A stretch of 64,000 nucleotides of DNA from Okamejei kenojei (lineage: Eukaryota), in NCBI GenBank assembly GCA_035221665.1, contig CM069161.1:15872001-15936000 (forward strand), given 5' to 3'. Each line of letters opens with the position of its first letter. Position 1 is the first letter of the stretch. Shown here piece by piece: positions 43,160 to 59,843 of this stretch. The position numbers and the translations under genes were made by a program. The notes beneath the pieces are model-generated. The model had not been told where the DNA came from. It was given only the letters and a program-made list of their open reading frames with translations, and did not search any database.

Positions 43160-43927
43160 AAAATAGTAAGATTAAACGAGAACTTACCAGTTCGAAGTTT
43201 AATCGTTATTTTATGAGGAGTAACGATGAGGGATTACGTGAAGAAGCCCCGCCTGGCGCTAGAACGGCATACTTCAAAGCAGCGGCATGAAAAACACAGA
43301 ACTTAATAGCCGGAGTAAGATAGTAAGGCTCAACATAGATTTAGAACTACCAGATGATCATTTATTTTATGAGGGTCGGGAGTGGAGGGCACGTAATCCC
43401 TCATTGTTACTCCTCATAAAATAACGATCAAACTTCGAACTGGTAAGTTCTCGTTTAATCTTACTATTTTACTTCGGAGTCACGTGAGTGACTACGTGAA
43501 GATTTTGAAGCTTTCTGTGTTTTTTATGTCGTAGACTCATTCCATACGACACTCTGGCTCATTCAACACAGTAATTTTGACGGCCACCGGTATCGGAACC
43601 GGCTCCGTAATCTCCCGTTCCGATCGCTCCCCTTAGGACGTTCTTTTAAAACTCCGTTGTTTTTTATATAAAGTATTTCCTTTTATTTGAACTTTTACTT
43701 ATTTCTTACTTTTAAATTAGTTTTAAATCCTGGTTTTCAATACCAGCCACGGAGTTTTTTAGACCCTGAAAGTGTTTTTCCACTGCACTTGCCTGCGGGC
43801 CCGTACCTACCACTGTCGAGGAGCTGCCTCTGCAGCTCTTGCTCTGCCGTCAGCGTCGACGTCATGCCGTTCCAGCGCCAGGCGGGGCTTCTTCACATAG
43901 TCACTCACGTGACTCCGAAGTAAAATA
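43160..43927 (-). mobile_element. Non-autonomous miniature DIRS-like (tyrosine-recombinase retrotransposon) element
   Basis: 33-bp ITR pair (43238-43270 / 43864-43896, 1 mismatch) with non-matching outer extensions. Internal region 43390-43502 is the reverse complement of the left end (43160-43240) fused to that of the right end (43890-43927). AAAATA occurs at both ends and at the internal junction. No recognisable coding ORF. Confidence 0.82.
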
Positions 43928-51383: not shown

Positions 51384-52282
51384 TTTTCTTTACTGACCGA
51401 GTGGAAGCAGCTCAACAAGGAAGCTGTGAAATTTAACGCCTTTATAATTAATATTGGATTTCTAGCCTGCAATAAATTGGCTGAAAATAAACTACTCCGA
51501 GAAAAGAAAAAATACTTGGAGCAGATGGTTCTTTAGTTGCAGTACCAATCGCTGACACGCAGGCAGGATAGCTGCACAGAATCAGATTGTTGAGGTATTT
51601 TGCAACGTTTCCTCTGCACACTGCAACAGGTACTCTGAAACACGTTCACAATTTCACTTGCATTAATCAAACTGGAAATAGGCATTGCCTCCAATGCAGA
51701 GGGGTCAGACAGCATCTCCCAACGCATGATTTGGAAGCTGTGCTGCGGAATCAGGTCTCGTTGATTTGAAGGCAGACACAAAAGGCTGGACTAACTCAGT
51801 GGGTCAGGCAACATCTCTGGAGAAAGTGAATAGGCGACGTTTCGGGTTGAGACCCTTCTTGATTTGAATTGTCTGGAGCATGCAGCAAGGGTCTGAGGTT
51901 TGCTGATTGTGTTTTGGAGTCGGGTTACACAGCAGGGGGCGGTGGTGAAAATACTTCTAACGGTTGTCACATCACAAAAAGGTCACTGATCAGCATTGCA
52001 CATGCTGCCGGTACAGTTAGACCTCAGCCCAGCCAGGGAGCAACCGCACCCCGTGCTCGCCCGCTTCTGAATGAAAGTTCACTGTAGTTACTGCTCATAA
52101 ATATCATAACATTAAGCCTCAGATCAAAAGAATCACTCCTTGCATTGTTTTAAATTGTCTCTGGTTACTCTGGTGTCTAGGTACATAAGTATACACACAT
52201 ACATCCTAACACAGATTCCAACACACAAACGCTCTCTAACACACGTGCACACACAAACACACACACTCTTCGAATGACTTAC

Positions 52283-52741
52283 CCTGTAGACCATTACTTT
52301 GAAGTTATTCCGTTTCAGCAGCACGGCCTCGTTTGACTCGAGCTTCTTGATCTGCGCTGCCTGCTTCTCCATGTTATGCTTGATGGTCTTGACATTGACA
52401 CTGACTTTCCGAATCTTCTCCAGCATCTTGTTGACACTGCTCGCCGAGGTCGTGTGCGACTTGGTCAGTTTGCTCAGCTCAGTTTGAATGCCGAACACGG
52501 CGTTCTCCATCTCCTGGTGCCGCTGCTCGAGCTGCTGCTGGCTGCTTTGGATCTGATCAACCATTCCCACCACTTTGTCCAGGAGAGTGAGCACCAGCAC
52601 CCCATTGAACGGAGGCTCGGACTTTGAGCTTTCATTCTGCTTCAGCGGCTCTGCGGGCTCCGGGCTGTCCAGCTCCCGCCCCTGGTCCAGCTCCTGCTCC
52701 AGGCTCAGCTCCTGCGCCTCTGTCTGCATGGTGTCTGCCAT
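52283..52741 (-). CDS. cavin1: Caveolae-associated protein 1 (cavin-1/PTRF), coding exon 1 (153 codons)
   Basis: ATG in strong Kozak context (CCAACCATGG). Encodes MADTMQ...NGVLVLTLLDKVVGMVDQIQ...TSASSVNKMLEKIRKVSVNVKTIK...QIKKLESNEAVLLKRNNFKVMVYR, the cavin HR1 coiled coil. Ends at donor AGG|GTAAGT, phase 0, the same position as the mammalian NFKVMIYQ|DEV junction. Confidence 0.95.
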
Positions 52742-53100
52742 GGTTGGAAATGTCAAACTGGGATTGAAAATACCAACTGAACCTGGGCTGACTGTGCTGG
52801 GATGGAAGCCAGTCCTGCAGGGCGAGAGAGAATGAGAGAGAGAGGGGAGCCTGTCTATATGTGCTCTCACTCCTGTTACACAGCTGCTCAAGAAGTGTCC
52901 AACAAAATGTGCAAGCTTAGAAGGACATCAGCTACTCCACCTAGCTGCACAGTGTGAGACTGCTGAAGTTCATGCCAGCCCCCTCCTTAAATTGTTTGAA
53001 TATTTGGGAGGGAGTTGAAGACTTCCAATGCAAGCACGGGCACATCTAACGAGGAAGGCACACCTCCAAGAGAAAATATCGCAGACCTGAGACAGGAATG
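52742..53100 (-). promoter_or_regulatory. Putative cavin1 5'UTR and proximal promoter
   Basis: Repeat-free stretch upstream of the ATG. TATA-like CATATAGA (~52854-52861, minus), GC-box-like GCCCCCTCC (~52978-52987) and TEAD/MCAT motif GGAATG (53095-53100). Motif spotting only; TSS unknown. Confidence 0.35.
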
Positions 53101-55675: not shown

Positions 55676-57892
55676 GCATGTCGACTAGATGCATTTAACT
55701 TGGCAACATGTTCAGCATGAACATTGTTGGCTGAAAGGCTATGTTGTATGCTCCAATGTAAGAGACAGAGGGGTGACCTGATAGAGCTTTATTAAATCAT
55801 GCAGGGCATTGCTAAGGTGAATAACCATAGTCTTTGTTCTTGGGTAGAGAAGTCTAAAACTAGAGTGCATAAGGTTAGGGTGAAAGAGGAAAGATTTAAA
55901 GGAGCCTGAGGAGCAGACTTTTCACACAGAGGGTAGTGCTTACATGGAACAAGTTGCCCAGAAAAAGTGGTAGAGCTAGACAATAGACAATAGACAATAG
56001 GTGCAGGAGTATGCCATTCGGCCCTTCGAGCCAGCACCGCCATTCTATGTGATCATAGTTACAATCACAGCATTTAAAAGACATGGAAATGAAAGGTTTA
56101 TTATATTATGGGATAGGCACGGACATGCAGGGTTAGTTTCATTATATGGTTTGGTCAGCGTGAACAAGTTGGAGCAAGGGGCATGTTTCCAGAACAGAAT
56201 ACCCAGACCTTTACGTCTGAAAAGAGAACACCAGCAGATGATATAATGGAGATTGTTATAGTTAGGAAAGATGGCCAGTGTTGCTATTTGTAGGAAGAAT
56301 GAAATCGAGGCCCTCAATATAAAAAAAGGGCAAATAATCCAAAGGGCATTAAAAGCAATTCTTGCCCCAGAATATGATGAGGAAGAGGACCTCTAGATGT
56401 AGTGGGGGCACAGATTCATATACATGTGGCCCAGACTGGCACTAGGGGGAAGTGGATGCTGCTGGATGTCTGGAAGCATAGGCAGAGGCTTAAGGGGATT
56501 GTAATTTTTAACACGCTGGTTGGTCCTGTGGCCTCTGAACCATGAGTTCTACATAAAACTGCGATGGTACCATTGCGAATGGCTCCTCCCACCTCACTTC
56601 CATTATACTGTGCCTGATGCCATGATCCAAACTTTGATGTGTCCACGAACATCCCAGAAAAGCATAAAATGACAAACAGCAGGCATTGCAGGGAAGAGTT
56701 CATGATGTGGTCATTGCAATTTTACCCTGCAATAACCAATGAATGAGCGCCAAGAATTAACAAACGTGGGCGATTACCTCACATGGTGAAAATCTTCTGC
56801 CAGTGGTCACTAAACATGGACAAACGTCTCGATTTCAAGCCTCGTTGGGTACTCGATTTCAAGCTTTTATTGGGTACTGGAATTTTACTTCAATTATTAA
56901 GTTGACTTACAAAGAGAAGTTAATGTTTTTGCAGATTTCACAGCTGCGCTGAGCTGGTCAGTTGGGATGAGCTGGTGTTGGATGATAGGGAGTTTCCACA
57001 GTTTACAGCTGCCGGGGACTAACAGCTGTAGAGGAGGTCTCCCAATAGCAGCACGGAAACTGCCACGGTGTCCCCCCGTAGGTCGATGCTGACACCAAAA
57101 ACAGGCAACTACAGTTACTATCAACGGGCTGAAAACTATCTGCCTCAGGCCTTAACCTCTTCATGATCGAAAGCAGTGGTGAACATCAGAGTTGCGTCAA
57201 GAAACATGTCAGCGCAGAATATAACCGGCCCTACACAAGTAAGGGAGCCAAATATTGTTCATTAGGGTTCTAAGGGCAATGACAATCTCATAAGGGTGAC
57301 TCCGTTCTCAGATGCCTGATCCCAAAACTTGAACAATTTGGGCACTAGTCTGCTCTGCGTTAGTAGTCTCCAGTTCTGAGTTTGTTTTGGTCCTGCTGTG
57401 CAGTTGTTAGAGACATACTGCATGGAAACAGGCCCTTCAGCCCAACTGGCCAATGATGACCAAGATGTCCCATCTATACTAGTCTCACCTGCCCATGTTT
57501 GGTCCATATCCATCTAAATCTTTTCTATCCATGTATCTGTCCAAATATCTTTTAAATGTTGTCATACTATCTGCCTCGACTATCTGCTCCAGCAACCCAC
57601 TCCTTATACCCACCATCCACTTCCTGAAAAAGTTGCTCCTCAGGTTCCTATTTCCTCTCTCACCCACATTGTTTGTTTTTCCAAGTTTCAGCTGTAAGTT
57701 TAAAGGTCTGATGGGAATAGAGCACGCAACGTCTCACTACATCCCTACTCTTGCTTGAGCTTTGGAGAGGAATAGTTAGGGTTGCCGACTCTGGTTTTTT
57801 TTATTCTGGACGGTGATGTCACACGACCACTTGGGTTGAATCACTGCCTTCATTCTTCCATCATTGCCCCATTCTCCATCAGATACCATTCA

Positions 57893-59843
57893 ATCATCAG
57901 AGGACTGGGAGAAATTCAGAGACCAACAGAGGAGAACAAAGGACTTAATTAGGAAAGGGAGAATGGAGTATGAAAGAAAACTGGCAGGGAACATAAAAAC
58001 TGACTGCAAAAGTTTTTATCGATATGTGAAGCGCAAAAGATTAGTTAAAACAAATGTAGGTCCCTTGCAGTCAGAAACGAGTGAATTGATCATGGGGAAC
58101 AAGGACATGGCAGACCAATTGAATAACTACTTTGGTTCTGTCTTCACTAAGGAAGACATAAATAATTTGCCGGAAATAGCAGGGGATCGCGGGTCAAATG
58201 AGATGGAGGAAATGAGTGAAATCCAGGTTACCCGGAACGTGGTGTTGGGTAAATTGAATGGATTAAAGGCCGATAAATCCCCAGGGCCAGATAGGCTCGA
58301 TCCCAGAGTACTTAAAGAAGTAGCCCCAGAAATAGCAGGTGCCTTAATGATAATTTTTCAAAACTCTTTAGATTATGGAGTAGTTCCTGAGGATTGGAGG
58401 GTAGCTAATGTAACCCCACTTTTTAAAAAGGGAGGGAGAAAGAAAACGCGGGAATTACAGACCAGTTAGTCTAACATCGGTAGTGGGGAAACTGCTAGAG
58501 TCAATTATTAGAGATGGGATAGCAGCGCATTTGGAAAGTGGTGAAATCATTGGACAAAGTCAGCATGGATTTACGAATCTTATTGAATTTTTCGAGGATG
58601 TAACTAGTAGAGTGGATAAGGGAGAAGCAGTGGATGTGTTATATCTGGACTTTCAGAAGGCTTTCGACAAGGTCCCACACAAGAGATTTGTATACAAACT
58701 TAAAGCACACGGTATTGGTGGTTCAGTATTGATGTGGATAGAGAACTGGCTGGCAGACAGGAAGCAAAGAGTAGGAGTGAACGGGTCCTTTTCAGGATGG
58801 CAGACAGTGACTAGTGGGGTGCCGCAAGGCTCAGTGCTGGGACCCCAGCTATTTACAATATACATTAATGATTTGGACAAGGGAATTAAATGCAACATCT
58901 CGAAGTTTGCGGATGACACGAAGCTGGGGGGCAGTGTTAGCTGTGAGGAGGATGCTAGGAGGCTGCAAGATGACTTGGATAGACTGGGTGAGTGGGCAAA
59001 TGCATGGCAGATGCAGTATAATGTGGATAAATGTGAGGTTATCCACTTTGGTGGCAAAAACAGTAAGGTAGACTATTATTTGAATGGTTACCGATTAGGA
59101 AAAGGGGAGATGCAGCGAGACCTGGGTGTCATAGTACACCAGTCATTGAAAGTAGGCATGCAGGTGCAGCAGGCTGTGAAGAAAGCGAATAGTATGTTGG
59201 CATTCATAGCAAAAGGATTTGAGTACAAGAGCAGGGAGGTTCTACTGCAGTTGTATAGGGTCTTGGTGAGGCCACACCTGGAGTATTGCATACAGTTTTG
59301 GTCACCAAATCTGAGGAAAGACATTCTTGCCATAGAGGGAGTACAGAGAAGGTTCACCAGACTGATTCCTGGGATGGCACGACTTCCATATGAAGAAAGA
59401 CTGGATAGACTCGGCTTGTACTCGCTGGAATTTAGAAGATTGAGGGGTGATCTCATAGAGACTTACAAAATTCTTAAAGGGTTGGACAGGCTTGATGCAG
59501 GAAGATTGTTCCCGGTGTTGGGGAAGTCCAGGACAAGGGGTCACAGTTTAAGGATAAGGGGGAAGTCTTTTAGGACCGAGATGAGAAAATCGTTTTTCAC
59601 ACAGAGAGTGGTGAATCTGTGGAATTCTCTGCCACAGAAGGTAGTTGAGGCCAGTTCGTTGGCCATATTTAAGAGGGAGTTGGATGTGGCCCTTGTGGCT
59701 GAAGGGATCAGAGGGTATGGAGAGAAGGCAGGTACAGGATATTGAGTTGGATGATCAGCCATGATCATATTGAATGGCGGTGCAGGCTCGAAGGGCCGAA
59801 TGGCCTGCTCCTGCACCTAATTTCTATGTTTCTATGTTTCTAT
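57893..59843 (+). mobile_element. 5'-truncated CR1-clade LINE (HER1-like): ORF2 RT region, 3'UTR and (TTTCTATG)n tail
   Basis: ORFs 57864-58469 and 58483-59745 carry KSPGPD, VPEDWRVANVTPLFKKG, YLDFQKAFDKVPH, GVPQGSVLGP, SKFADDTKL and RPHLEYC. There is a +1 frameshift near 58449. Confidence 0.95.

Follow-up and report, generated by a model that had tools for sequence, protein, structure and literature searches.

The 765-bp DIRS1-like element of an Okamejei kenojei contig is very probably an internally deleted copy from a large, decayed family moved in trans

Within a 64,000-nucleotide stretch of the Okamejei kenojei genome (hereafter the window; the genome containing it spans 2.76 Gb), a segment of about 770 bp carries terminal and internal repeats of the DIRS1 type. 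A sequence-only reading had taken it for a young parasitic family living on an autonomous DIRS. Is the short form itself a mobile family, or a single copy that has lost its interior? We conclude that the short form is an ordinary deletion that happened once. Very probably, the element belongs to a family (family A) and represents one copy whose interior, of approximately 4.1 kb, was lost through one microhomology-mediated deletion and which left no detectable progeny; family A itself is of near full size, long, non-coding and moved in trans. The real parasite is the decayed family of approximately 4.8 kb, not the miniature.

A direct check of the window letters recovered all three repeat pairs where they had been placed, with the mismatches claimed. 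The arms 43160–43240 and 43390–43470 pair over 81 nt with two mismatches (43201, 43225), and the arms 43465–43502 and 43890–43927 over 38 nt with one (43495); an internal 113-bp segment (43390–43502) is indeed complementary to both joined termini. The core of the inverted terminal repeats (ITRs; 43238–43270 and 43864–43896) is 33 nt long with a single mismatch, as announced, or 44 nt at 91% when extended. These repeats are far above chance, and the folding z-score of the element is −23.2 (20 shuffles). The ‘different outer extensions’ attributed to the ITRs hold only in part: a true extension (approx. 45 nt) exists at the 3′ end, but the other outer parts, of about 30 nt, are partly complementary and form a divergent ITR.

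Read on the minus strand, to which all the following features belong, the element occupies 43162–43926, or 765 bp including both terminal ATT. Its 5′ terminus (left ITR, 43864–43926) is composed of a divergent part (43897–43926) and the conserved part (43864–43896), the first 37 nt being complementary to the left portion of the internal complementary segment (ICR). The ICR (43390–43502) comprises a left (43466–43502) and a right portion (43390–43468), which overlap at the 3-nt circle junction (43466–43468). Repeat analysis and aligned ends then place the right ITR at 43207–43270 (conserved 43238–43270, divergent about 43207–43237) and the right extension at 43162–43206, with the 3′ ATT at 43162–43164. 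The E-box (CACGTG, 43906–43911), GC-box-like (GGCGGG, 43881–43886) and CRE-like (TGACGTC, 43858–43864) letters noticed earlier are present at the right end, and this region (43858–43911) may act as an internal promoter; the GC-box-like run and the ATG/CRE differ between families. Two putative splice donors follow. The one at 43805–43811 (G/GTAGGT) lies at what is presumably the homologous position of a donor used in family B (copy L175, below); the other (43787–43793) has GC instead of GT here, and reads CAG/GTAAGT in 38 of the 42 family-A copies scored. The CpG observed/expected ratio over 43162–43926 is 1.21 versus 0.42 for the window, which makes the element a small CpG-rich island and is consistent with a young insertion.

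The window element contains no open reading frame longer than 51 aa, and RT/RH/MT and YR coding is absent from it, tblastn giving chance matches only. It is a DIRS derivative, not an autonomous member, and was rightly called non-autonomous, its coding regions having been deleted. Two families, B and C, in which the reading frames of gag-pol and YR are open, provide the coding partner with the same ends that the sequence-only reading had proposed to look for. A PF00589 profile search yielded 3605 candidates, of which 96 were scored, and each of the 30 loci returned and of the 20 extended has the same 3′ end and ICR. L111 (family B, 4765 bp) displays a 1090-aa frame (RVT_1, 4e-22) and a 333-aa YR frame (Phage_integrase, 4e-11); its Dam match is weak (0.003, under the cut-off), and RNase H and gag, in L111 as in its relatives, are assigned presumptively by motif and position. 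These frames lie on the strand matching the minus strand of the window, in agreement with the sense predicted for the element. L195 (family C, 4952 bp) exhibits frames of 1065 and 347 aa, and its first 65 nt are 95% identical to the window element; L049, also of family C, is 94% identical to it over the 3′ 410 nt, and an RT query taken from L049 retrieved 147 scored matches, several of them in frames longer than 1000 aa. In L111 (L111:3275-6547) and L195, the presumed gag and RT-RH-MT share a single frame (1090 and 1065 aa). A PDB sequence search with the YR gave no match, and the ESM Atlas returned eukaryotic integrase clusters only.

The DIRS1-like anatomy proposed earlier is therefore upheld: inverted terminal repeats, an ICR near the 3′ end with a 3-bp junction overlap (AAT) and covariation between families, and relatives with the same termini that encode RT, MT (Dam weak) and YR. 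A MITE, a foldback element or a chance hairpin unrelated to DIRS would also account for the strong hairpin and the lack of any frame above 51 aa, yet we give this practically no credence, as it is refuted by the coding relatives. Moreover, the repeats are subterminal and asymmetric, and there is no target-site duplication beyond the shared ATT, of which empty sites contain one.

The AAAATA motif reported at both ends of the window copy is present there, but its interpretation as a 6-bp target was an over-reading. Across 70 5′ and 69 3′ termini from all families, only ATT (AAT on the plus strand) is shared. The 5′ crossover trinucleotide (43924–43926 in the window) shows A in 67, T in 69 and T in 70 of the 70 termini, whereas the 3′ ends show T, A, T and T in 67, 69, 69 and 68 of 69. 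The flanking positions vary: the base before ATT matches the window element in 22/70 termini and the two bases after it in 30/69 and 39/69, G never following the 3′ ATT (0/69). The core is thus a 3-bp ATT, and the 6-bp match in the window is partly coincidence; the empty-site sequence predicted earlier for this locus comes out identical with a 3-bp or a 6-bp target. Insertion by recombination without target duplication, also proposed earlier, fared better. Among 35 elements submitted to an empty-site test, 14 lay within repeats of which the collected loci include an empty paralog; the best matches of 12 were gapless at one ATT, and those of the two others gapped and distant. Relatives of the window element hence integrate at a terminal trinucleotide without duplication, as judged from paralogous sites. 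ATT/AAT is the commonest terminus of DIRS1-like elements under the trinucleotide rule given in PMC3266345. Four DIRS copies (L049, L050, L031 and L122) are themselves inserted at ATT within other DIRS copies.

The distribution of the two halves of the element in the genome bears directly on the origin of the short form. A first genome search with the window element yielded 6071 first-look candidates, 40 of which were scored: 38 cover positions 1–416 only (98–99%), and two match throughout, namely the window itself and L002 (89%). The other half has 40 scored places at 96–100%. Both halves are carried by 16 of the 20 extended loci (chosen by 3′ end), 3.9–6.8 kb apart, and long copies possess ATTAC at both edges of the part deleted from the window copy. 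In the latter, this 5-nt microhomology forms the deletion junction (43571–43575), joining the 5′ approximately 355 bp to the 3′ approximately 415 bp. A 29-mer spanning the junction occurs once genome-wide with up to three mismatches allowed, whereas a TRIM- or SIRE-like family would show several copies of one junction at different sites. A copy of similar size, which the sequence-only reading had proposed to look for, does exist, L002 being a second miniature (756 bp), but its junction is different and contains a few filler bases. Together, the unique junction and the different junction of L002 indicate that the miniature was not amplified, as far as the searches reach. Finally, none of the 29 complete copies among the 40 that were sampled on contigs C1 and C2 by exact match to the 5′ 31-mer is shorter than 2.3 kb, and the notion of a young parasitic family of approximately 770 bp is not supported. 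The sampled copies leave room for a miniature family with other breakpoints; the search band for further miniatures was set from the two known ones and consequently carries no information on the clustering of breakpoints. The window junction was also considered as a splice product, and rejected because the part removed lacks GT-AG ends on either strand.

The 765-bp form could instead be a transposition product, generated by an RT template switch at ATTAC or transcribed from a short master and integrated as short cDNA. The window copy retains all cis elements, a second miniature exists, and short RNA-derived copies can apparently integrate, since a 1590-bp one (L175) has both ATT ends. Nevertheless, the single occurrence of the window junction, the filler bases at that of L002 and the size of the complete copies make a mobile mini-DIRS unlikely. 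For the one-off deletion that we retain, an event in the chromosome after insertion is favoured, with reservations, over a deletion during reverse transcription.

Family A itself comprises at least 1025 copies genome-wide (5′ 31-mer, up to two mismatches), mostly of 4.6–5.2 kb, with a median of about 4.8 kb. Among the 40 copies sampled on C1 and C2, the 29 with both ends within 6.5 kb measure 2361–5247 bp, with a longest ORF of at most 138 aa; 25 of these exceed 4 kb, and the 11 other sampled copies have no 3′ end within 6.5 kb or a 5′ end that is not anchored. No DIRS ORF was detected in the sampled family-A copies, which were taken non-randomly, as best matches or by the exact 5′ 31-mer on two contigs. 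Their interior (GC 31% versus 43%) yields only decayed or faint RH/MT/YR remnants by tblastn. Many copies (e.g. L036) also share, in what was the gag region and in other parts of the interior, a tandem duplication of approximately 165 bp and a number of (TA)n tracts.

Using the open YR of L195 as reference, 34 of 38 A copies longer than 4 kb could be anchored. Three stops are common to their YR gene (31/33, 33/34 and 32/32 copies), as are 11 frame-breaking deletions (29–34 of 34). These genes are 64% identical to the open L195 YR and 92% identical among themselves (range 74–99), and a repeat run on 15 copies with L049 as reference agrees on the lesions. The mismatch between ICR and termini amounts to 2.1% in 38 of 44 A copies (six with indels excluded); for family B the figure is 3.6%, from 13 of 14 copies (the row with indels excluded). 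These shared lesions, combined with an ICR/terminus divergence of approximately 2%, imply that family A was already defunct when it multiplied and that it was mobilised in trans, although recombination between ICR and terminus means that their similarity may understate age. The family is thereby LARD-like, with many copies, conserved ends and a loss of coding that preceded amplification. At seven positions of the right terminus where A and B differ, the ICRs always show the matching difference, which is what templating of the ends by the ICR should produce. In a 28-row tree, rooted for drawing only, the ten A rows form one clade (100/100) with a 0.35 stem and mostly short tips; six of these rows have an atypical base composition. 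The loop between right ICR and right terminus is inverted in six of 101 3′ regions (L088, L108, L122, L138, L165 and L195), which turns the right ITR into a direct repeat and could reflect recombination or an assembly artefact; two further regions have deletions in this loop.

Shared lesions alone would fit any common descent, and the ICR/terminus inversions do reveal local recombination, so that family A might have spread by DNA-level duplication or gene conversion. This is highly improbable, being largely refuted by the flanks, which are unrelated from copy to copy and start exactly at ATT, and by the precise empty paralogous sites, including those of the A copies L002, L040, L042 and L045. 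Trans-mobilised retrotransposition thus remains our reading. Following the Cappello model (as outlined in PMC7192593 and PMC3266345), an internal promoter in the left ITR region would produce the RNA of family A, which RT supplied in trans by coding families would copy; the ICR would restore both ends and join them at AAT, after which a tyrosine recombinase, again supplied in trans, would cross the ATT of the element with a genomic ATT. Coding capacity for gag-pol and YR disappeared from family A long ago, while its 5′ leader, ICR and termini were retained. From this model we infer the RNA, cDNA, end-joining and YR crossover steps; according to PMC7192593, circular cDNA and YR integration are unproven even for DIRS-1, the cDNA being mostly linear and single-stranded, with no inverse-PCR product. 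The ICR of DIRS-1 is essential and its RT acts in trans, and the assay could not answer whether its other proteins do so (PMC7192593). The precise insertion of more than 1000 copies, whose dead YR genes have their lesions in common, argues that DIRS proteins besides RT act in trans. End similarity designates family C as the likeliest helper; against this, the tree groups family A with L128, not with L049/L195.

How the downstream YR frame is translated is not explained in the DIRS literature examined. The family-B frame lacks a Met near its start, and in most lineages the end of pol overlaps TGCAG. Donor and acceptor candidates were noted before copies joining them were searched for, and a single copy was found. 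L175 (G000:C2:53316361; region G000:C2:53314861-53317897, element on the minus strand) is a family-B element of 1590 bp with both ATT ends and an ICR, in which leader position +119 is joined exactly to the YR acceptor (1-nt overlap), gag-pol being gone at a GT...AG pair. It looks like a retrotransposed spliced RNA and suggests a spliced YR mRNA, for which it offers an exact junction. In L111 the YR acceptor corresponds to +3289, and +137 is a second candidate leader donor. A random deletion would be very unlikely to fall exactly on both predicted sites (about 1e-7 per deletion, by estimate); however, a single copy represents a single event, and a resident copy converted by spliced cDNA would look the same. 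On balance we lean towards a DIRS YR made from a spliced subgenomic mRNA, comparable to retroviral env, from a leader donor to an acceptor in the last gag-pol codons; L175 would have completed a full cycle by way of spliced RNA, and all steps, including integration, would be available in trans, as in family A. The family-B donor would be +119, and translation would start 16 codons after the acceptor, at AUG, or at GUG in family B and part of C. The rarity of amplified short products, set beside a thriving dead form of 4.8 kb, would point to a requirement for length or internal sequence.

The CAG acceptor is found in 20 of 22 unspliced rows. Of 23 distinct rows, 16 have GTG and 5 have ATG at codon 16 after it, the context being in most cases a purine at −3 and a G at +4 (the GTG rows are mostly from family B, hence non-independent); of the other two, one is frameshifted and one has ATG one codon earlier. 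GTG takes the place of ATG at the likely start codon of YR in families B and C, within a strong Kozak context, which raises the possibility of non-AUG initiation. Exact motifs retrieved no spliced copy of family A. Among 37 matches with a base other than C at acceptor −3, 18 were examined (17 unspliced copies altered by a point change or a small indel, and one local inversion), the rest being 17 TAG, one AAG and L175 itself. At the YR acceptor of one family-B copy (L189, G000:C17:51514361-51514540), a local inverted duplication forms a hairpin. Four public runs (contigs; three marked probably DNA) contained no leader-to-YR joint among 15 of 21 joints, and have no bearing on the question. Two other routes to YR were discarded: an AUG in the CRE motif spliced in frame, because many copies read TTA in place of this ATG and its phase is shifted by 2-nt insertions, and a −1 ribosomal frameshift, no slippery heptamer being visible by eye at the pol end.

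In repeat dimensions, the only feature compared, the window element resembles LgDIRS1 and AcaDIRS1 as described in PMC3266345: ATT at both ends, an AAT junction, no left extension, a divergent ITR of approximately 30–35 nt and a conserved one of approximately 33, a right extension of approximately 45–48, an ICR of approximately 37 + 79 nt and no long ORF overlap (LgDIRS1: 35/31/48, ICR 39-86, 4680 bp). DIRS1-like elements usually have three ORFs according to the same source, whereas the coding relatives here carry the presumed gag and RT-RH-MT in one frame of 1065–1090 aa and the window copy has no ORFs. Dictyostelium DIRS-1 shares the ITR and ICR layout but has ITRs of approximately 300 bp (PMC7192593). 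The Xenopus DIRS-like families (PMC9210276) likewise combine a vertebrate host, ITR/ICR and an MT domain, but differ by TTT ends, ITRs of approximately 120 bp and three ORFs with a LAP2alpha gag. Other non-coding derivatives of tyrosine-recombinase retroelements are TOC1 of Chlamydomonas (PMC9940879) and SIRE, derived from VIPER (PMC6681497), the only non-autonomous YR elements in the literature searched. TOC elements are listed with split direct repeats instead of ITR/ICR (PMC3266345), and SIRE is a short amplified family (PMC6681497), whereas the form amplified here has nearly its full length. Neither a spliced DIRS YR mRNA nor a non-autonomous family with ITR/ICR was found described in this literature; either may be recorded in the Poulter and Butler 2015 review, in Repbase or in supplements, which lie beyond it.

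The window copy marks a natural minimal cis set (about 355 bp + 415 bp), and family A would escape domain-based annotation; what deserves following is the dead family of near full length together with the spliced copy, not the miniature. LARDs are large, non-coding elements moved in trans and derived from LTR retrotransposons. We take family A to be LARD-like and the window copy TRIM-sized, with another repeat structure and integration chemistry than in those classes, the TRIM-sized copy not being amplified here.

Cavin (PTRF/SDPR) frames at 52133–52927 and 2221–2964 flank the element, both on the minus strand, so that it probably sits in sense orientation in an intron of a vertebrate cavin gene. 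The two cavin exons are approximately 49 kb apart, and the element between them, on the same strand, carries a donor-like site. Its right flank is single-copy. Elsewhere in the window, a LINE-like reverse transcriptase (57840–59745, plus strand) is split over two frames of 209 and 443 aa (RVT_1, 3e-30).
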